Assembly (NCBI GenBank): GCA_021498095.1 | Contig: JAIZWK010000001.1 | Span: 3,390,001-3,422,000 of the forward strand | From: Candidatus Harpocratesius repetitus | GTDB lineage: Archaea > Asgardarchaeota > Lokiarchaeia > Sigyniarchaeales > Promethearchaeaceae | Direction of reading: 5' to 3' | DNA length: 32,000 nucleotides | In this document: positions 1 to 27,858 of the stretch, piece by piece | Numbering within the stretch: the stretch's first letter is position 1 | How the letters are laid out: every line of letters starts with the position of its first letter | Made by a program: the position numbers and the translations under genes | The notes under the pieces: generated by a model | Seen by the model: the letters and a program-made list of their open reading frames with translations, nothing else | What the model was told of the DNA's origin: nothing | The model's database searches: none

Positions 1-460
1 TGAAAATACAAAATCCTCGCGCATTAGCATAGTCAGAGTGATGACCAGGAGGCCGACATAGATTAAAAGCGCGTTCAACTTTTTTTCCCATGATTGCATC
101 AATTGCTGTAAACATTCCTCCAGCAGCATAAAGTGCAGCTACATAACTTTGGGGAGATGCAACTGTTTCACCATATCGTTTACTAAAAGAGTCAAGATAG
201 ATTTGATATGGGACAGTTTTTGCTTCTTCACAGCGAATTTTAGCTGTTTGAATTAAATCTGGAGAATGGCACCATTTTATTTCTTCAACTGTAGCTTTTC
301 TTGGGTTCAAGGGAATAATCCATGGATATCTACCATCTCCATAAAAATTAAGTGAAGTTAATGTATCGATCGTTCCTCTTAATCGTTCGGAATTTTCTGG
401 ATGAGCCCCTGTTTCATGTTGAAGAAAAATCTCATTATAAACAATCCCAACTTTTTTCAC
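1..460 (-). CDS. Histone deacetylase family (Zn-dependent HDAC/AcuC/APAH-like) protein, N-terminal part; runs off the left edge
   Basis: Manual translation from GTG at 460, preceded by SD-like GGTGAG: MKKVGIVYNEIFLQHETGAHPENSERL...RAFNLCRPPGHHSDYANARGFCIF. HPE-x2-RL, RPPGHH and GFCIF are hallmark HDAC-family motifs. Not in the supplied ORF track. Confidence 0.93.
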   Translation of the reverse strand, partial: MKKVGIVYNEIFLQHETGAHPENSERLRGTIDTLTSLNFYGDGRYPWIIPLNPRKATVEEIKWCHSPDLIQTAKIRCEEAKTVPYQIYLDSFSKRYGETVASPQSYVAALYAAGGMFTAIDAIMGKKVERAFNLCRPPGHHSDYANARGFCIF

Positions 461-618
461 TTACTCACCAATTATATTTGAACGAATAATTATAATTAAA
501 TTGATCTTGATTTCGCTTGGATTATTAATGAATAAAATTTTTTATAACTCATATTTTAAAGGATCAAAACCCAAATAAGGATCAAATACAAACTAAAAAT
601 AGAAAAAAAAATTATCGA

Positions 619-1197
619 GTGGAAAGTTCGACTATGACTACCCAAATATATAAACTCAAAATCATCATAATCGGCGAATATGCAGCAGGAAAAACCTCCT
701 TAATAAAAAATTTTGTTGAGGGGGCATATACGAAAGATTATCGTCCCACAATCGGTTCGAACTTATTTATTAAAAAACTCGCATTTAAAGATAAAATAGA
801 TAATGAATATTTTTTCACTATTACAGTGTGGGATATTGCAGGACAAGAAAAGTGGACAAGTTTGCGGCAAACTTATTATCGTGGAGCACAAGGTGTTTTT
901 GTAGTAGGAGATTTAACCCGGAAAAACTCATTTGAGCAAATTGAAAATTTTTGGATCAAAGATTTTAAAGAATTTGGTGGTACTTGTGCAAAAAGTGCTC
1001 CAATTATATTATTAGCAAATAAAAATGACCTTACTCCTGAAATAAAAGAAGAACAGATTCGGGGCATCGCTGAACGCAACGGTGTATTTAAAGTAATATA
1101 TACATCAGCAAAAACTGGTTACCATGTAAATGAAGCCTTTATTGCAATGATTAGAAGTTGTTCTGGTCTTGAGGATATCACACCTATCTCCATTTAA
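619..1197 (+). CDS. Rab-like small GTPase (Ras superfamily); real start may be ATG at 634
   Basis: G1 GEYAAGKTS, G2 RPTIG, G3 WDIAGQE, RabF-like YYRGA, G4 NKND, G5 TSAK. No C-terminal CaaX/CC prenylation motif. Confidence 0.93.
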   Translation: MESSTMTTQIYKLKIIIIGEYAAGKTSLIKNFVEGAYTKDYRPTIGSNLFIKKLAFKDKIDNEYFFTITVWDIAGQEKWTSLRQTYYRGAQGVFVVGDLTRKNSFEQIENFWIKDFKEFGGTCAKSAPIILLANKNDLTPEIKEEQIRGIAERNGVFKVIYTSAKTGYHVNEAFIAMIRSCSGLEDITPISI

Positions 1198-1290
1198 TTG
1201 AATTTCAATTTAATAAAGTTGATTTTGGGTTATTTTCTCCATTACAGAATCGATACTTTTTTAAATTGTCATACTGATATCAATAATACA

Positions 1291-2544
1291 ATGTCACTCT
1301 CACTTTTGGATACAAGTAATTATTATATAGAGAAAGCTCGAATTCCGCTTTCATTGGTTGGAGGAATTGCAGCTTTTATTAAAATTTTGTTCAACTTTTA
1401 TTATCTGGCATATTTTATTGTTACCTATGAGTTAAGCCTTAATTTCTATGATTATATGCCAATTATTAATTTGCGTCCATTTACCAAAATCTTGATTTTC
1501 TTAATATATTTACCTTTAATTTTGAATACATCAGCGGTTCGAAGTAAATCTAAGCGTATAGCAGCATTAATCTTATGGTTTTTGATTTTTGTATTAGCAT
1601 TTATCATTTATTCTATCTCTTTAGATTTTATACCAGTTATTATTATTCAATCATTTAGATATATTTTTGAAATTGCATTTTTTATTATTACTTTTAAAGC
1701 CCGTCCTGTTTTGAACTTTATCTTACTTTTAATTAGAGGACTCAACATAATCTTATTAGTTTTTCGTATTTTAGTGATGTATTCAGATATTAGCACATTG
1801 ATTCCTTTTTCGATAACATATATATATTCAGCAGAATCTTTTATTGTATTTTTTTGGTGGTCTCTATATTTATTTAGTAATACTGGACGCTCAAATGTAG
1901 TTAAATCAAATATGCAGGAATGGACTCAAAATCAAAACTTATCAACAGCAACAACTACAATGTCAACTACAACAGGTTCGGTTCATTCAGATTCAATAGC
2001 ACAAAACACTAATTCAACTGTAATGACAAAAAATCTTGGAAATAATGCTGGTCTTGATAGTGGTGGAACATTTGGTATTCCTCGAGCATTGTTTTATTGT
2101 ACTACATGCAAAAGTCAAAAAAAAATACGATTACAAAAAAATGACATATATCAAGAGAATAAATGTCCAAGTTGTGGAAATATTTTATTAGCTTGGTGGG
2201 CACAATCACCGAAATCTAAATATCTAAAATTTATAATTGGAGTGATGTTCATGGGTGGAGGTTTGTTTTCAATTATGATTGAAGGTATTCTGAATGAAGG
2301 ATTAATACCAGTAATTATAATGAACACTCTAGGAATAATTTATTTGATTATTAGTCTAATTTTGATGTATACAGCAAGTAAATTAGATATTCAAGGACCC
2401 CATCCCACTGCGGCAAAAGTCCTTCCACATGGTGTTTTCGAGCGTTTTGGTTCTGAATTAATTAAAATTACAGTAATTGCAACTATAGGAGGATTATTTC
2501 TATTTGGATTTAACCGCATAATTGTATTTATTGCAGTGTTATAA
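1291..2544 (+). CDS. Multi-pass membrane protein with S/T/N-rich linker and internal Zn-ribbon; ORF open from 1198, ATG at 1291 preferred
   Basis: About 6 hydrophobic segments, then QNQNLSTATTTMSTTTG linker, CTTC...CPSCG Zn-ribbon, then about 3 further TM segments. Confidence 0.7.
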   Translation: MSLSLLDTSNYYIEKARIPLSLVGGIAAFIKILFNFYYLAYFIVTYELSLNFYDYMPIINLRPFTKILIFLIYLPLILNTSAVRSKSKRIAALILWFLIFVLAFIIYSISLDFIPVIIIQSFRYIFEIAFFIITFKARPVLNFILLLIRGLNIILLVFRILVMYSDISTLIPFSITYIYSAESFIVFFWWSLYLFSNTGRSNVVKSNMQEWTQNQNLSTATTTMSTTTGSVHSDSIAQNTNSTVMTKNLGNNAGLDSGGTFGIPRALFYCTTCKSQKKIRLQKNDIYQENKCPSCGNILLAWWAQSPKSKYLKFIIGVMFMGGGLFSIMIEGILNEGLIPVIIMNTLGIIYLIISLILMYTASKLDIQGPHPTAAKVLPHGVFERFGSELIKITVIATIGGLFLFGFNRIIVFIAVL

Positions 2545-2586
2545 ATTTAAAATCTTAAATCTTACTAAATAAAAATAGGAAAAATA

Positions 2587-5385
2587 CTATTTAAAAAATG
2601 AATCTAAATTTGATGGTCTTTCTTTTTTTCTTATTCTAAATTTTGGTAAAGGTTTTGATTCTTTTTCTTTATGTAATTGAGTATATATGCTTATCGCCAA
2701 TGAATGCCCAATTAAAGGAATTTTTTCTAAATCTTCAATTGTAGCGTCTTTCAATTCATTAATATTGTGATATCCTGCATGAAAAATTTTTCGCGCACGA
2801 ACTCGTCCAACACCTTGAATACTTACAAATGGTAAAACACTAGAACGAATACCATATTTAACTCGTTGACTTAAATTCTGCAATTCAGATTCTAAATTAA
2901 GAATTAGAGGCTCTTCTTCACGATCTAAATGCACAATTCTTAAAAATCCCCTTAATAACCATAATGTTAATTCTACAAGCCGGTGAACATCTCCGATACC
3001 TAAATTATAACGCTCGCTGATTTCTTTTATCGAAATTTCGTTAATCCAATCTAAGAGTACCATTGTCATTTTGATTTGTTTTGCAAAATCTTGGAATAAA
3101 AGATCTCCAGGTTCCCAAACTTGCTCCATAATAAAATTATCTTCATGATTTTGAATAAAAAACAGAATCAAATTATATTCATTTTTACGTAAATAATATT
3201 TTGGAAAAGCATCTAATTTTGTTAATAAATGAATCCAACTCACAGGTTGTAGAATGATTTCTTGATTCTGATAAAGTACCTTGGCATAATACAGATCTTC
3301 ACGTAAAGTTATCGCATCTTTGGGTGATAAATAACTTTGACTCACAATTTTTCCAAAATTTGTTGGTATTAAACGCTTATTAGATTGAGATTCATCGATT
3401 TCAACAGATAATAAACTTAAGAGATCTTTTTCGAGAAAATATTCGAGTATATTTGATATGTCTGCCCTTAAGCGAGAATCTGAAAGATAATTTGATTGCT
3501 TAAGCATCTCTGACTTAAATGGAATTAGGTGCGAATCAATATCAACATCAACATCAAGATCCATATTACTAAATTGAGAATTTTGAGAATCGATATTATT
3601 GTTTAAATTTGAAGATAATACAGATAATGAATTTGGTAGATTTGCTGAAATTTCTTTTTTTTCTAAGTTAAAATTTGTAGGTTGAGTTGATCGAGTAGAT
3701 TTGGCAAGTTGGGTAGAGCGTGAGGTATTATTAAACATTTCATCAGCTGTAATAAAATCATTTGAATAAAATTCTGATGAATTAAAAATGTGTAGTGGAT
3801 CTTCCCCTCTACCACCAGAACGATGCTTTTTAGGACGACTCATTACTTTTCTTGAAGTTGCAGGAAAATTACTTTTAGATTTTAACTTTAATTCAGAATT
3901 TGATTGAATTATTGAAGTTTTAGATATGAATTGTTGATAATAATAAAAAGTCTGCTCTATAAATTGGAATAATTGCGTTTGATTCGATACTATTCCGGAA
4001 GTAAAAAGGCTCAATATATGAGATGCTAACTGTGTCTCATCTGATAATTTGCTTATAATTTGCTCTGGTGTTCCATTAATATAGGACTCCGCATCTTTCA
4101 ATAACTTTTCTGGAGAACTTCCTAAAATAACAACTTCTCCGTAAGGATCATATCGAGGGCGCCCAGCTCGTCCTGCCATTTGTTTGTATTCAAGAATGGG
4201 AATTAATACACTACCTTTATCGCCCTCATATCGATATAAACTTTTAATGATTACTCGACGTGCTGGAGTATTAACACCTGCAGCTAAGGTTGGGGTGCAA
4301 CAAATGACTTTGATAATATGAGAATTGAAATTTTTAACAATAAAATCTAATTGATCAGAAGCCATACCAGCATGATGAAAAGCAACCCCTCCTTTTAGAC
4401 ATTGATATAATTTTTTACTGAATTGGCTTTCATCCATGTATTTCTCCTTAAATTCACTCTGAATTTTTAAAAACTGATTCCTTTCTTTATTTGAATATAA
4501 AATACGTATCTTTGGAGAAAGTTCTTCAGCTTCTTGTATTGCACGTTTGCGTGAATTAGTAAAAATTAACACTTGACCACCTTCTTTTAACATATCAATG
4601 GTCAATGAAGCAGAAGATGAATGCCCTGGAATAGAAATTACTCGACGGGATGTACCATCTTTAAATTTAATTTCATCTCCATAATAATATCCTTCCTTCA
4701 AGCGAACAGGACGCCACGTACTTTCAATAAGATCTGCATGTAACCATTCCGCTAATTGCCTTGCATTTTGAATTGTTGCAGAAAGACCAATGATTTGTAT
4801 CGATGATGGATGAGAAAGTAATCGTGTAATTAAAAATTCTAAAGTAACCCCCCGATGAGAGTCATGCAATAGGTGAATTTCATCAATGATAACCATATTA
4901 ATATCATTTAACAGCTTCGGATTCATCCGGAATATGGAATCCGCTTTTTCATTTGTAAGAAATATTATATGATTTTGAAAGATTCGAAAATCTGGTTGAT
5001 CCACATCACTACGAGATATACCTACATGAAAACCAATCCTTTTCCAGTTTTCAGAAAACTCATGGTATTTCTCTGCAGCAAGGGCTTTTAATGGGCACAA
5101 ATATAGAATTTTTCCCCATTTCCCCATTTGCTTTGGAAATTTTTCTCGATTAATTATTAAGTGATTTAGTGCAATAATTTCAGCAATTAACGTTTTTCCT
5201 GAAGCAGTGGGAATACTTATGAGTAAATTGTGTCCATTTAATCCTGGTTTCAAAGCGGTTAATTGAGGAGGATATAAATTTGGAATACCACGCTTATGTA
5301 ATTCTTCTTCCAAAATTCTTGGTAATGATAAGGACTTCCAGTTTGGAATAGAAGGATTATTTGAGTAATTACCAAAATCGGTCAA
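2587..5385 (-). CDS. hel308: Hel308/Hjm Ski2-like SF2 DNA helicase with about 150-aa low-complexity insertion
   Basis: Motif I IPTASGKT, II IIDEIH, III GLSAT, GVAFHHAG, TPTLAAGVNTPA, VI QMAGRAGRP; C-terminal HhH (IQGVGRVRARKIFHAG). TTG start with GGAG SD, 15 bp after the MCM stop. Confidence 0.93.
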   Translation of the reverse strand: MTDFGNYSNNPSIPNWKSLSLPRILEEELHKRGIPNLYPPQLTALKPGLNGHNLLISIPTASGKTLIAEIIALNHLIINREKFPKQMGKWGKILYLCPLKALAAEKYHEFSENWKRIGFHVGISRSDVDQPDFRIFQNHIIFLTNEKADSIFRMNPKLLNDINMVIIDEIHLLHDSHRGVTLEFLITRLLSHPSSIQIIGLSATIQNARQLAEWLHADLIESTWRPVRLKEGYYYGDEIKFKDGTSRRVISIPGHSSSASLTIDMLKEGGQVLIFTNSRKRAIQEAEELSPKIRILYSNKERNQFLKIQSEFKEKYMDESQFSKKLYQCLKGGVAFHHAGMASDQLDFIVKNFNSHIIKVICCTPTLAAGVNTPARRVIIKSLYRYEGDKGSVLIPILEYKQMAGRAGRPRYDPYGEVVILGSSPEKLLKDAESYINGTPEQIISKLSDETQLASHILSLFTSGIVSNQTQLFQFIEQTFYYYQQFISKTSIIQSNSELKLKSKSNFPATSRKVMSRPKKHRSGGRGEDPLHIFNSSEFYSNDFITADEMFNNTSRSTQLAKSTRSTQPTNFNLEKKEISANLPNSLSVLSSNLNNNIDSQNSQFSNMDLDVDVDIDSHLIPFKSEMLKQSNYLSDSRLRADISNILEYFLEKDLLSLLSVEIDESQSNKRLIPTNFGKIVSQSYLSPKDAITLREDLYYAKVLYQNQEIILQPVSWIHLLTKLDAFPKYYLRKNEYNLILFFIQNHEDNFIMEQVWEPGDLLFQDFAKQIKMTMVLLDWINEISIKEISERYNLGIGDVHRLVELTLWLLRGFLRIVHLDREEEPLILNLESELQNLSQRVKYGIRSSVLPFVSIQGVGRVRARKIFHAGYHNINELKDATIEDLEKIPLIGHSLAISIYTQLHKEKESKPLPKFRIRKKERPSNLDSFFK

Positions 5386-20722: not shown

Positions 20723-22002
20723 GTGTCTGAGAGAAAACATTATTGTTATTTTGATTTCAATACATTCAAAACTTGCCATGAATTCATTCATTTATGGCTT
20801 ATCGGAGAATTTATCCCAAAATTCCAGAAAAAAATAACTCAAACAAACTCAGATTGTCCACTTCATAATCAAGCATTTAATCCAAGTCTTCGTTTAGATT
20901 ATTCGCAAAGATCGTATGGGAAAGATGTACTAGAATGTATCGGAGAGTATTCTATTCAAGAAGGCATGAAACCAAAAGATATTCTTACAATTCTTCGTCG
21001 AGAGTATGATCTTCCGATTTCGCTTAGTACCGTCGCTCGTATGTGTAATGATATTCTTGTTTTGACCACACACCATATCGATCAAAACACATACAAAATA
21101 ATTAAACAACAAGATTATATTTTAGTTGCATTTGACGGACAAGAACCTGATGGTGATCATCTGCCGTTGTGGAATTTTACCGATCTTATTTCTGGGCGAG
21201 TTTTAATGACCAAATACTTTGAACGTGTGGATTATCACGTACTTCATGAATCTATTGAAGAAATTATTGCAAATTACAAGAAACCGATCATCGGCTTTGT
21301 AAATGATAAACAAGGGCCTATTCGGAAATGTTTAGAGACATTTTACCCCGAGATTTCACATCAATATTGTACATTTCATTTTTCAAATAATCTTTGGAAT
21401 CATTTGGAAAAATATGCAAATACAATTCAAAATCACTTATTAAAAACGGTAAAAGGACTCTATATTCATAAGGTCTCGACAGATATTAAAATTAAAGTTC
21501 CTCATGAGCCAGAACCAGTATCTTTAAAACAGTTATGTGCTTCTTTAGATAAAGAGATTCAAAAATTAGTAAAAAATCAAAACCTTAAATTTGAAAAGCT
21601 TCGTGGAATAACGAGTTTTGATAAAATTAAGCTTTATATTGAAGAATTTCGCTATTATATCGCTCAAATTCCTGTAGATGATCGTTTTTCAAAAATAATG
21701 AGTAAAACGCTTACAGATTTAGAAAGCGGATGTTCTCAAGTGGAACAACGATATAAACATGCGAAAGAAGGATTAACCTGGTTTAAATCTATTCATACGG
21801 TACTTTGGAAGGATAATCTGAAAAAAGATATACGAATTAGAGAATTAGACAACATTTTCACTGCAATTAACCAAAGAACCTTAAAGATCAATTCCAATTT
21901 TAAACAACAAGAAGCAAAAAGTTTTCTTCCTTCATCTAAAACCCCGTTCTGGAAGATTTTATGTGAATGGAACCGGCTATGGAGAAGTTATAAGCCAAAA
22001 TT
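20723..22002 (+). pseudogene. Mutator-like (IS256/ISH6/ISL3-type) transposase, truncated at its C-terminus by the adjacent IS
   Basis: LVAFDGQEP (D1), GFVNDKQ (D2), QYCTFHF (CxxH). Family-like sequence stops at RSYKPKL, exactly at the IS end at 22003, so the catalytic Glu region is missing. The ORF tail to 22153 is read-through into the IS. Confidence 0.78.
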
Positions 22003-23763
22003 GGGGGTTTGGCGACGTAATCTTCCACAATATAATCAACAAAAAAGAATGGTTCGTATGGAAGATTCTCCAATTATGGACAAATCGCATAGAATAGATT
22101 GTTTGCCCAGTTATCATTTTATATACCAATGCACTTGTCTTGATCATCAGTAAATCTGATTTTACTCTATTTCTAAGATGTTTAGTGCTAATTTTCCAGG
22201 AAGTACTTTGCCCATCTCCGATTAAATCGCCTCGCTTTTTAATTATTCCGTTAATCCCTTCATTTTGTCCCCGTATGTGGTAAACCAAATACCATTCTAT
22301 GGTACCTTGCATTATTTTAGTATTCCCAATTGTTTTCTCAGCATTTGTTCCTGATTTTCGAATCTCTCTACGAATTATTTGAATTTTTTTTCTCTATCGC
22401 CACTCTTTCTTTTGTTCTACAAGAGTCAAACCATGATACCGTGCATATTGGGCCCAATTTGTGAGTGCACGCTTAGTTTCTTTGATCTTAATCTTAAATG
22501 ATATAGGTTTGGGATATTGGGCAAGGTAATACTTCACATCTCTAATCCAAGCCTTCTTTTGAGCTTTTGGAATTCCATTTTTTATTGCTTTTTTAGAGAT
22601 GCTTCTAAGGTTATTTTCTGCCGTTTTTAATTTTTTGAGTAATTTTGAGTTTCTTTTGTTAAAATCAACAAAGGGAATTACATCTGCGGCTTCTATCGCA
22701 TGAATTACCGATGTTGAAGAATATCCCGCATCAGCAGTAATTGCAATGATTTCCGAGCCTGTATCTTTTGCTAACGTTAAAATTGGGTTCAAAGATTGTT
22801 TAAAAAGGGCAACATCTGCAGTTTTCCCCGTTTCAGTTCGTGAGACTATCGGTAAGCAATTTGTTCCGCATCCTATTGATGTTTTATGTCCAAAAAAAAA
22901 CCCCTTGAACCTGTTCCGTTTGAAGCTTCCAAATTCCGACAGTCAACGGATAAGTTACATCCGTCAATCGAGTTTACGCTCAGATCTTGGATATTCTCTT
23001 TAATTAATAATTTATCGATAGCCTTTTCATATATTTGAAGATTTGATTCGAGATAATCGGAGTACCAATATAATTTCTTGATTCCTGGTGGTCGATTTAC
23101 AAATCCGAGTCTGCCTGCTATGTCAAAACAGAGTCTATTATCAATAAAACTAACTGTTTTTAACTTTCCATCAAGTTCTGTGATGCTTGAGATGTGATTA
23201 ATATGTTGATAAATACGAGCATTGAGATGGGCCATCAATTCTCCTCTAGAATATGTGTCATGTTTAGGAAATATTACGGAAGGTGGTATAATTCCTATAA
23301 AACATTCAATAGGAACTGTAATTTTCTGATTAGAAGTAGTAAATATGTTACTGCATACAATCCTTGCAGTATCGCCGATTTTAGTGTAATAGTAGTCTTG
23401 AAATTTGCTAAATAAATTTTCTAATGACGTTGAGTGTAGGTTTAACATGTCTGGAGCGTTTTTATAGACCCAACTATAACTTATGACACGTTTAAATAAT
23501 GATTCCAATCGTTCTTTGATTAAAGGTGCTCGGTCTGATGAAATAATCGAATGAATGACTCCAAGTTCCTTTCCAAATAATGCTGAAAGTATAAGGAAAT
23601 ATACTGTTTGTTTAGCGATATTTTTTCCTCGATTGACAGATTTGATCGATTCATCATAATCTAAGATCTGCTCAATGTCCTGATCAAAAGAAGAAAACCC
23701 CTCAATGATAATGTTTTGGTTGCTTACCGGGAATTTTGAAAAGATTTGATGATTCGGCGCCAT
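21977..23763 (-). pseudogene. DDE transposase in three pieces: frameshift at a T9 run near 22892-22900 and in-frame TAG at 22394-22396
   Basis: Pieces join into SIDGCNL...GFFFGHKT...ITADAGYSS...RGQNEGINGIIKKRG. 22394-22792 and 21977-22312 are in the same frame, separated only by the TAG and 27 sense codons. Confidence 0.8.
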
Positions 23764-24877: not shown

Positions 24878-26345
24878 CAGTCTTTAAGGTTATATTTTTA
24901 ATTCATAAAAAATAACCCCCTTTCTTCTTTTTGTAAAAATCATAAATTATCCATGATATTACTTTTAATATTTTTTATGATTTTACTTGATATGCGTAAA
25001 TGATAAACAGACAGAGTCATTTTCCACTTTTTCTGCTTCAATCGCAGTTGCTGCTTTCAGTAATATTCTCAGCAATTAAAGATATATGCATGAAGATAAA
25101 GTTCAGCAATTTGCGTGGTAGACTTTTGATTTCGGTAAGATATATGAATCTCATTAAGCATTCTAAAGCTGATTTCTTCAAACCATCGTTTTTTATATGT
25201 TTTTAAAAGCCATCGGCTCCATCGGGCTTGATTTTTATGAGGTCGTAGTGTTGTGAAGAATCCCTCAAGTTCCTCTATTGCTTGGTCAAAACTTATTTTA
25301 TTTTGAAGGAATTTTTGACGGATTTCCAAAGCTGATTGGCTTTTATGTGCAGTTAAAACTAAATGCAAATGTACCGAACTCGGCCAAGGTTTTGTCCCAG
25401 GGTTCTGAGAGAAGAAATATTTGTCAGAAATAGGTCGTTTTCCTAATAATAAATCGCTGAACGCCCTCTTGACATGTTTGAAACGCTTAGCAGACATTAA
25501 CACAGACAATTTTTGTAATTATAATTCTTTAACCAGAGCTGCACGCTAAAATTCACGATCCATTAACACATAGTTTAGGTTAGATCCTTGAAATTTCAAC
25601 GATTTTGCACTAATACCAATGTGTCTTAAGCGATATTGTCCATATCTGAGCAATCAAATCTCAGAAAAAAGAATATGTCCGCAACCTTGAAGAGCAAAAC
25701 CTTGGAACAAACGGGTCTTATGAGTTCCTTGTTGTTTATGCGTACCAACCTCCAAAGGTGGTTGAATCTTTCTATAGTAAGGATATTCGGTGTTATCAAC
25801 CAAGAGACGCATTTTTGAACCTTTGATCTCTTCTTTTCGGATTTCCATATTAACTCGATTTAAAAGGTTTTCAAAAATAAAATGAATATCTTTATTGGAA
25901 AGCAACCTAAAAAATTTGTCCACATCCGTTTGATAGGATATTAAGCGACGTTTTCAGACTCCATCTTTAAATTCCTTTATTCTTAATAATTTTCTTTTGC
26001 AATAATATTGTCCAAAATAATTATTAAGAAATTCTGAAGCATATGTCGTTGATTATTTAGTTACCATTGCATAAAGCTTTACAAGTATAAAATCCGAATA
26101 TGTATAAAGCCTCGGCTTGAATATTTTCGCGATTCCTGTTTGACTCCCTAAACCTTCGATATAAGATTTAAATTCTCCGCTGAAAAATAAATCTTGAGGA
26201 AAAATTGGGATGATCGACGAGGGAATCGCCGCTTCCGTAATAGATGACATAATCCATCAATTGAATATTCCTCTTTTCCTTCAAAAGCGTTTCGGTTCTC
26301 TATTATTGCTGGTTTAAATCGGCGCATTTATAACTTTGAAGACTG
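24878..26345 (-). mobile_element. ISH3-family insertion sequence (1468 bp) with decayed transposase
   Basis: TIRs CAGTCTTTAAGGTTATA and CAGTCTTCAAAGTTATA (15/17). CAGT termini are typical of the ISH3 group. No TSD. Confidence 0.85.
25069..26250 (-). pseudogene. ISH3-type DDE transposase pseudogene (several in-frame stops and frameshifts)
   Basis: Fragments contain LLVDNTEYPYY (D1), VLMDREF* (D2) and TYKKRWFEEISFR (E). In-frame TAA and TGA lie between the 26053-26250 and 25654-25923 pieces. Confidence 0.85.
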
Positions 26346-26347
26346 TT

Positions 26348-27114
26348 GTGCGACAAGAAGCACTATAACTGAATACATGACATGATTCTAACAGAAATAG
26401 AAACTGCCGACAAATTGACTGTCGATGGCTATGTGGACATGCATTATTAATAATGATTTTGTGTGAAGCTCCACGGACAATGTACCATCAGCATCCAACG
26501 AGATGATGGTTGTGGGCCAGCCAATGTGCCCATGGGAAACGAAAGTGAAGACATGATAAACTCCGTGATCGAGAATTGGTGAAATAATTTGACACACCAT
26601 AACCAAAAGGTAAATTGCCAGGTAGAGCAAGTAACAGTTTTGCTCTTTGTCATCCGTTGCGCAATCGGAGGAAAGTGTCTCCCTAAAGACACAATTGAAA
26701 GTCAGTTATAGCGAACTTGGTAAACCTCATATTCGCCAGCAATGCTGGTATCTTGGAGACAAGAAAAAGGGATGGACTAGGAGGTAGAGGATGCAGGAAA
26801 AAGCGAAAACAGATCTGTAATCGATCTGATAGGATCTTATGAAATCATTCATTGAACTGACTTGAGGACATGAAATTCATGGAAAACGTAATTCTGAAAA
26901 GATCTTTCGAGAAACCCGAAGTTTAAACTGGAGTTTAAAATCTTAATCAATAAACCAGTGGTAACAGAGGGAAATTGGGAATTCATAAGAAATTATGAAT
27001 CCCTAAAGACATGGTGACATGATCGGGTGCTCAAGGTGCGAGCTACATGCGAGGAAACCTGCACGTGTGGTTCCTAAAAGAGGGAAGTACCGTAAGATAC
27101 CTTCCTTATTTAAC
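26348..27114 (+). ncRNA. Group II intron C, complete and ORF-less (767 nt, IIB-like ribozyme)
   Basis: 5' GTGCGACAAG at 26348. EBS1 hairpin AGAGCAA-GTAACAGTT-TTGCTCT. DV GAGCTACAT-GCGAG-GAAA-CCTGC-AC-GTGTGGTTC (27040-27073). DVI ends TTATTTAAC at 27114. No long ORF inside. Confidence 0.92.
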
Positions 27115-27858
27115 TTAGTTTTTCATATTTCTATTCTTAAAAATTTTACAAATATGGTTTAAAGATTTTATCCCCATTCCACATTCTTGAATTAAAAATT
27201 CTCCAGTAGACAGATTTTTGTTTAATTTATTAATTATTGATTTTTCTACGTTTTTGTGCTAAAACTTGGACTCTCGAATTCTTTTTAGAAATATATTTTA
27301 AAAGGTTATGAGGCTTTAGTAATTTTTTTTAATTTAATCAAAATCTATCTTTTGAGCCAATTTTCATGACAATACTTCCATGCATCCAATTATTATTTGA
27401 GTCGGTATTTTTACAATCTTAAATTCGATTAATAATTTCATATTTTTATCATTTTTCTTTGAATTATTGACTTAATCTTATTTTTTTTCTTTAACTATCT
27501 TTCGACAAATTTAAAATTAAGATAGATTTGGGGATTGTGGAAAATTTAGAGAAGATTTTCGGATTTCCTTCAATTTTTCGAAATCTACTAAAACATCTTA
27601 TATGTTTTTTTATTATATTTAAATATTCAAAGTTTTTTCAATTATCGTTTTAATTTTTAAAGAATTCAGCAAATATTAAAGATGCAATCTTTTTGAATAC
27701 ACATTAGTTGAATTTAAGCTATGTTATGGCTGAATTAATATAATTTGTTCACAATTGATTATTTATAAGAAATATTGTTCATGATAAAATAAAAGGATTA
27801 AAATATAACGAAAAAAAGCATAAAGGTTGTTTTAAAAAAGAAAAATAGAATTTAGTGA

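Follow-up and report, generated by a model that had tools for sequence, protein, structure and literature searches.

An ORF-less group II intron in Candidatus Harpocratesius repetitus whose guide sequences match the tip of an ISH3-like insertion sequence

The stretch of DNA analysed here, which we call the window, comprises 32,000 nucleotides of contig JAIZWK010000001.1 of the Asgard archaeon Candidatus Harpocratesius repetitus (GenBank assembly GCA_021498095.1, positions 3,390,001 to 3,422,000 of the forward strand). The genome has a match over the full length of the archaeal SSU rRNA model. Its subject is a group II intron, intron C, that has no open reading frame (ORF) for a reverse transcriptase (RT) and starts 2 nt beyond the end of a degenerate ISH3-like insertion sequence (IS). 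The intron can pair with its 5' exon through two exon-binding sites (EBS1 and EBS2), whose partners are the intron-binding sites IBS1 and IBS2, and these partners lie largely in the terminal inverted repeat (TIR) of the IS. The features on which the argument turns are as follows, in window coordinates.

24878..26345, minus strand: ISH3-like IS, subfamily A, 1468 bp; the transposase frame is broken and starts near 26250
26330..26345, plus strand: TIR of the IS at its transposase-proximal end, ATAACTTTGAAGACTG
26335..26339, plus strand: IBS2, UUUGA, exon positions -13 to -9, within the TIR; pairs with EBS2
26341..26347, plus strand: IBS1, G-ACUGUU, exon positions -7 to -1; made up of five TIR-tip bases and a final TT that belongs to the flank
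26348..27114, plus strand: ORF-less group II intron C, 767 nt, from Rfam RF02012 and RF00029 and the consensus fold
26569..26573, plus strand: EBS2, UCGAG, from covariation with exon positions -13 to -9
26633..26639, plus strand: EBS1, AACAGU (26633-26638) plus a U able to wobble with the G at -7, in the loop of the hairpin 26624-26648

Two Rfam families match intron C on the plus strand: RF02012 (group II domain I; gathering score 34) scores 58.8 bits at 26407-26539, and RF00029 (domains V and VI; gathering score 40) scores 46.3 bits at 27038-27114. The 5' end, GTGCGAC at 26348, fits the conserved GUGYG, and the 3' end, ...TATTTAAC at 27114 (...TTTAAC), fits the conserved AY. Because the minimum-free-energy fold of the whole intron is incomplete, recovering only domain V, the EBS1 hairpin and some domain I stems (z = -2.6), we used a comparative fold instead, for which intron C and three ORF-less relatives (G268:C12, G170:C137 and G011:C355) served as input. 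This consensus fold contains 165 pairs, 72 of them with compensatory changes, and gives the following domains.

26354..26719, plus strand: domain I, with the closing helix and the subdomains of the consensus fold
26725..26784, plus strand: domain II of the consensus fold
26785..27039, plus strand: domains III and IV, given as a joint span; contains the start remnant of the ORF for the intron-encoded protein (IEP) at 26869-26943
27040..27073, plus strand: domain V; has the AGC triad, a bulge of 2 nt, a GAAA loop and, beside the loop, a single A-C mismatch
27075..27112, plus strand: domain VI; the branch-point A, at 27108, is bulged
27115..27305, plus strand: 3' exon, T-rich non-coding DNA that starts TTAGTT and reaches a repeat resembling a miniature inverted-repeat transposable element (MITE)
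Predicted ligated-exon junction, plus strand, intron C removed: ...GAAGACTGTT / TTAGTTTTTC

In the consensus fold the domain V helix is kept, with compensatory changes, across the ORF-less relatives, and A27108 is unpaired 7 nt from the intron 3' end, which matches the expectation of 7-8 nt for a branch point. As judged from sequence and fold, intron C is a ribozyme complete in all six domains, and it is predicted to be self-splicing. A sequence-only reading of this DNA had proposed a complete ORF-less group II intron here, and the Rfam matches, the six-domain fold and the missing RT gene all bear this out.

The missing gene can be traced to some extent. No plus-strand ORF of at least 80 amino acids is present in the 767-nt intron, and no match to PF00078 (RT) or PF08388 was found in the window. 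The ORF-bearing relatives of intron C encode a 497-aa IEP with RVT_N, RVT_1 and GIIM domains and no endonuclease domain; of a relative's IEP, intron C retains only a weak 22-residue remnant (IEP residues 23-44 at 26869-26934; tblastn, E 0.008 in a one-sequence search), and the 25-aa ORF-start remnant has no Pfam match. The first part of the ORF region is common to three ORF-less relatives from different genomes, whose deletion end-points differ, and their consensus alignment contains a conserved block, GATCTTTCGAG, in this ORF-start region. The kept ORF start would fit a retained, putative protein-binding site, and is at most suggestive of mobilisation in trans by a related IEP.

Contigs of the source sample span the junction of IS and intron with no differences, and its DNA reads bear the junction out. 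No intron-less allele, of the kind that the sequence-only reading had proposed looking for, was found among the reads of two DNA runs of the source sample, which are not independent of the assembly, and these reads contained no joints. Of the orthologous locus, the sister species G006 retains only the neighbouring 250-aa gene (70% identity), and the divergence is too great for it to stand in for an empty-site allele.

The boundary between IS and intron was set from other copies of the IS. Its 16-bp TIRs, CAGTCTTTAAGGTTAT and ATAACTTTGAAGACTG, bound the element at 24878-26345. Five full-length copies elsewhere in the source genome, G000 (2160165-2161630, 2373687-2375153, 2577990-2579455, 2676634-2678097 and 3564460-3565926), are about 67% identical to it and align from base 1 to base 1468, and each has its own 6-8 bp T-rich direct repeats (TTTCTT, TCTCTT, TCTATT). 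The direct repeats and the full-length alignments together place the end of the IS exactly at ...GAAGACTG (...ACTG), so that the next TT is flanking DNA and intron C starts 2 nt past the last IS base (26345), as the sequence-only reading had stated. Recent transposition is indicated by the 99% identity of four of the copies in G000; the window copy is degenerate. A sister copy encodes an intact 449-aa DDE transposase that matches NF033541 (ISH3) with E 1.7e-12 and 47 bits, below the cut-off of 225, and Pfam DDE_Tnp_1 with 20.4 bits against a cut-off of 23. The IS is thus probably a distant ISH3 relative, for which "ISH3-like" is a fair label and no more.

Members of this IS family enter T-rich sites in a single orientation, so that TT is the usual sequence after the transposase-proximal end. 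Their TIR tips do not differ between two genera (G000 and G012, loci L070-L078), and TT follows the right end in five of seven cases in G000 and in all five in G012, another genus, where each of the five copies of a related IS ends in ...CCTTGAAGACTG, then TT. Given this fixed orientation, the T-rich insertion sites and the conserved TIR tip, the target described below would be renewed by each transposition. The transposase gene runs inward from the intron-side end, so that intron C and the transposase are divergent.

To establish which exon bases are read by the intron, we aligned 20 nt of 5' exon and about 350 nt of intron from 15 related introns of ten genomes, and scored exon positions -6 to -1 against the EBS1 loop and positions -13 to -9 against a variable stretch about 65 nt upstream. 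EBS/IBS pairing is present in 96% of 165 cells (15 introns). With the exons swapped among the introns, pairing falls to a mean of 58% and a maximum of 80%, none of 2000 permutations reaching the observed value, and with the EBS/IBS registers slid it lies at 45-58%. In intron C itself, AACAGT (26633-26638) is the exact complement of ACTGTT (26342-26347), and EBS2 (TCGAG) pairs with IBS2 (TTTGA) through 5 bp, two of the five being G-U. EBS2 fits the consensus IS end, CUUGA (one G-U), better than the UUUGA of the window (two G-U). Overall, 11 of the 13 recognised 5'-exon bases lie in the tip of the IS inverted repeat and the other two (TT) in the flank. These 11 pairs are not attributable to chance, which argues that intron C entered after the IS was in place.

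The sequence-only reading had already recognised EBS1 as AACAGU at 26633-26638, the perfect complement of ACUGUU, and covariation now confirms the position. Its more general claim, that the intron guide reads the IS terminus, also stands, IBS2 and five of the seven IBS1 bases being TIR bases. Its EBS2, a CAAA pairing with TTTG over about 4 bp, proved wrong: CAAA is ruled out as it lies within a stretch invariant among the relatives, and the actual EBS2 is UCGAG at 26569-26573. One column, intron nt 63, covaries with the first base of the 3' exon and would be a candidate EBS3; as it falls within an early domain I stem that is poorly aligned, it is not claimed.

A second IS end in G000 (1642632-1642662, minus strand) carries the same arrangement: ...GAATACTG, then TT, then 29 nt of an intron-C-type 5' end. 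Over TT and the 29 intron nt, the two junctions are identical at 28 of 31 positions, including 16 of 16 in the segment that varies among the relatives. The IS at this second locus belongs to the B lineage, sharing 83% identity with the five B copies but only 66% with the window IS; if the junctions had diverged like the IS, 28/31 would have P of about 0.002-0.005. Since transposition carries no flanking DNA and the identity of the junctions exceeds the divergence of the IS, two separate intron insertions are the simplest reading. Beside IS copies of two different subfamilies, an intron of this type begins at position +3 each time, one of the two being a 29-nt remnant.

The second locus as a whole (G000 1642632-1643846, loci L003, L004 and L059) reads 29-nt intron-C-type 5' end, TT, B-lineage IS, 54 nt, and domains V and VI. 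The IS is truncated at its position 298, and the domains V and VI on its far side are of the type of an intron at 786 kb in the genome, not of intron C, and stand in opposite orientation. This locus is a composite wreck, which may have been produced by an inversion plus deletions.

Taken together, these data lead us to regard it as moderately probable that intron C descends, with loss of the ORF, from a group II intron that encoded an RT lacking an endonuclease, in a lineage whose preferred target is the insertion junction of the ISH3-like IS. According to this reading, excised intron RNA together with an RT (its own before the ORF was lost, or that of a related intron in trans) would have entered the top strand by reverse splicing, directly behind ...ACTGTT, and would then have been copied into DNA. 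With the insertion point outside the IS, the transposase would stay unbroken and the intron would not be carried along by the IS, and each new transposition of the IS would make a fresh empty site. The more general proposition, that an archaeal group II intron lineage homes to the junction of IS tip and T-rich flank, where each transposition gives a harmless intron-free site and the intron never lies within the IS, is more tentative, and we place it slightly on the doubtful side of an even balance.

Several observations weigh against the IS end as a home site, and some of them also favour the principal alternative, ectopic retrotransposition, in which one or two landings of the intron, or of its ORF-bearing parent, hit chance matches to its EBS and the IS end is not preferred. 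Intron C is single-copy in its genome, and the evidence base amounts to one complete copy and one 29-nt remnant. In a scan of the genome for sites with an EBS2 fit (G-U allowed) and an exact IBS1, 14 compatible sites were found, of which five are IS right ends, the only repeated class, and nine are unrelated sites that match IBS2 and IBS1 taken together equally well. Under random choice among the 14, two matches out of two would fall on IS ends with P of about 0.13; the two traces are thus suggestive and not strong alone. All other IS ends are empty, including three perfect sites in G000 beside 99%-identical B copies (2161630, 2373687 and 3564460) and five in G012, so that occupancy is two of seven right ends in G000 and none of five in G012, or two of 12 overall. 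Searches of genome_contigs, of metagenome_contigs and of 400 genomes from the phylum turned up no other junction of an IS end with an intron. An exact-pattern scan of the latter two for ACTGTT plus the intron 5' end gave nine loci, which are unrelated sequences or bacterial genes and none of which follows an IS end, and a degenerate pattern of IS end and intron start gave nine matches outside G000 in the 400 genomes, all of them chance (a reversed control gave six). Transcription of intron C would run outward, antisense to the transposase start, and no promoter was identified. Finally, the flanks of the window IS (...AATAAAT on the left, TT/TTAGTT on the right) form no direct repeat, so that at least one side of the locus has been rearranged after insertion.

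Relatives of intron C also use quite different targets, which counts on the same side. Some lie in the YADD codons of the RT of another intron (G005:C3 and C138) or at intergenic sites, and relatives in the sister family recur at an AT-rich target, T(A/T)TTAAAG-A(5-6). This variety suggests that target switching through a change of EBS is common in the clade, and that the IS-end specificity of intron C is one such switch. Against ectopic landing, the pairing of EBS1 is perfect along 6-7 bp and the best partner of EBS2 is the consensus IS end, as is typical of a home site; both traces stand at the same position beside IS of different subfamilies; and none of the nine non-IS sites is occupied. 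We therefore consider ectopic retrotransposition unlikely, with a real minority chance of being correct.

A further alternative holds that the intron inserted only once, long ago, and that the junction was copied by segmental duplication and both copies decayed, in which case the second junction is not an independent event. Both loci are indeed mobile-element graveyards in which fragments of intron 3' ends lie beyond the IS, on the side away from the junction, and the intron 5' end, being functionally conserved, could diverge more slowly than the IS. Such a duplication has to reconcile IS parts of different subfamilies that are only 66% identical, the second being 83% identical to B, with a junction identical at 28 of 31 positions and throughout the 16 that vary among the relatives, and the domains V and VI of the second locus belong to the 786-kb intron type rather than to intron C. 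We regard a single ancient insertion as improbable. That the IS came second, inserting just upstream of an existing intron, could draw on the taste of the IS for T-rich targets and on the absence of a direct repeat around the window copy, but it is very improbable indeed, as EBS1 and EBS2 would have had to match the IS tip by chance (six exact and five further pairs, fixed by covariation), and to do so twice.

The preferred reading, an intron lineage directed to the IS junction, does not describe an element that is spreading now, since intron C is single-copy and three perfect sites are unoccupied. The RT content of the genome agrees with this. In the window, only an RVT_N fragment is present and two further introns, A and B, are dead. 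The one intact RT in the genome (700805-702214) belongs to an intron of its own without an RF02012-type domain I; the closest RT, at 786 kb, is 54-59% identical, 5'-truncated and frameshifted; and a third, at 1130 kb, contains stop codons. The intact RT is only 43% identical to the IEP of the relatives of intron C. The genome has no cognate intact RT for intron C, which adds to the points listed above against the IS end as a home site. From its single copy and the lack of a cognate intact RT, intron C appears to be stranded and inactive today.

These results also bear on how the locus had been interpreted from its letters. The RTs of introns A and B had been put forward as mobilising intron C in trans, which the RVT_N fragment and the lack of a cognate intact RT do not support, and the hierarchy of IS, ORF-less intron and RT-encoding intron that had been drawn from the window describes a mobile-element graveyard and is at most hypothetical as a working system. 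The proposal that IS ends are targeted as safe, multi-copy landing sites fares better in part: it gains a second trace at the same position beside another subfamily, and it is held back by the single copy and the empty sites. Of the further copies of intron C for which a search of the genome had been proposed, no second full copy exists, and one 29-nt remnant after an IS end and TT does.

Some observations on the relatives and the surroundings stand apart from this argument. Locus L018 (G005:C3) holds nested RT-encoding introns at 206-4826 and 1656-4013, the inner one within the YADD codons of the outer RT, and the same junction of inner intron and YADD recurs on a second contig (L005, G005:C138). 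Nine introns (L028-L033, L035, L039 and L026), from genomes G166, G167, G170, G246, G250, G251, G268 and G229 of the sister family, are directly preceded by a motif resembling T(A/T)TTAAAG-A(5-6), with which both the EBS2 (UUAAA/UUAUA) and the U-rich EBS1 of these introns covary; the target is AT-rich and TATA-box-like. Outside its own genome, the introns nearest to intron C in their 5' ends, L008 and L011 (G008:C1108 and G008:C12), follow ...TTATC at two different sites and reach the contig ends, which suggests a multi-copy intron in G008. The 5' exon of an intron on G005:C269 bears a superficial likeness to an IS end, but was rejected as one, since BLAST shows no similarity between it and the IS and an inverted repeat is absent. 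In the window, 27306-27600 is occupied by the MITE-like repeat of about 295 bp, with about 35 genome copies at 73-97% identity; at its edge the source-sample contigs break and depth jumps. Further transposase debris lies upstream, at 20723-23763 (a 476-aa ORF with a weak MULE match and a DDE_Tnp_1 fragment), and the stretch from 20.7 to 27.6 kb as a whole is a mobile-element graveyard.

IS targeting is a widely used strategy of group II introns, with the introns located at fixed positions inside transposase genes (PMC3522654). Examples are RmInt1 in ISRm2011-2 of Sinorhizobium meliloti (PMC1802570) and E.c.I4 in IS629/IS911-type transposase genes (PMC3522654). As in these systems, the home of intron C would be a multi-copy, non-essential IS, and the IEP of RmInt1 lacks an endonuclease domain, as do those of the relatives of intron C. 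In contrast, RmInt1 and E.c.I4 lie inside the IS and are carried by it, whereas intron C lies 2 nt outside the TIR, and its target, TIR tip plus flank, would be recreated by each transposition with the intron left behind. RmInt1 is present in many copies; introns of the intron C type occupy two of 12 ends. In Thermosynechococcus elongatus, ORF-less group II introns have been shown to be mobilised by the IEPs of related introns (PMC2882425). Intron C has likewise lost the IEP ORF and kept the ribozyme, and the use of a related IEP in trans is only proposed for it; T. elongatus has many near-identical copies and intact helper IEPs, whereas intron C is single-copy and has no cognate intact IEP.

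Among archaea, Methanosarcina acetivorans reportedly has group II introns that include ORF-less ones nested in other introns, as Dai and Zimmerly are said to have described in 2003. Intron C resembles these in its archaeal host and ORF-less form, and RF02012 also matches M. acetivorans, which served as a control; in a sister genome, relatives of intron C have the YADD codons in the RT of a further intron as their insertion site. The target of intron C differs in being an IS terminus rather than an intron. For class C (IIC) and attC-associated introns, the insertion site follows a terminator or attC stem-loop, and they rely on DNA structure and a short IBS1, with no EBS2. They share with intron C a target that is a recurring non-coding feature made by other genetic elements and lying outside genes, whereas intron C has the normal sequence read-out by EBS1 and EBS2. 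Group II introns have been reported in Asgard archaea (bioRxiv 10.1101/2024.12.10.627823). IS-targeting introns and ORF-less group II introns are thus already known, and what is new in the present sequence comparison is a target that straddles IS tip and flank, with the intron outside the IS.

The practical value of intron C is modest, with one copy, one remnant and an element that appears inactive. Prokaryotic group II introns persist by means of harmless, repeated targets, and those known are IS-internal sites, terminators and attC sites. If the reading favoured here is true, an IS tip with its preferred flank would be a further type of target, and the intron would depend on the IS for fresh sites without hitch-hiking on it. 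Intron C adds an ORF-less intron with mapped EBS1 and EBS2 to the sparse group II record of an archaeal lineage, a record that bears on ideas of the origin of spliceosomal introns.

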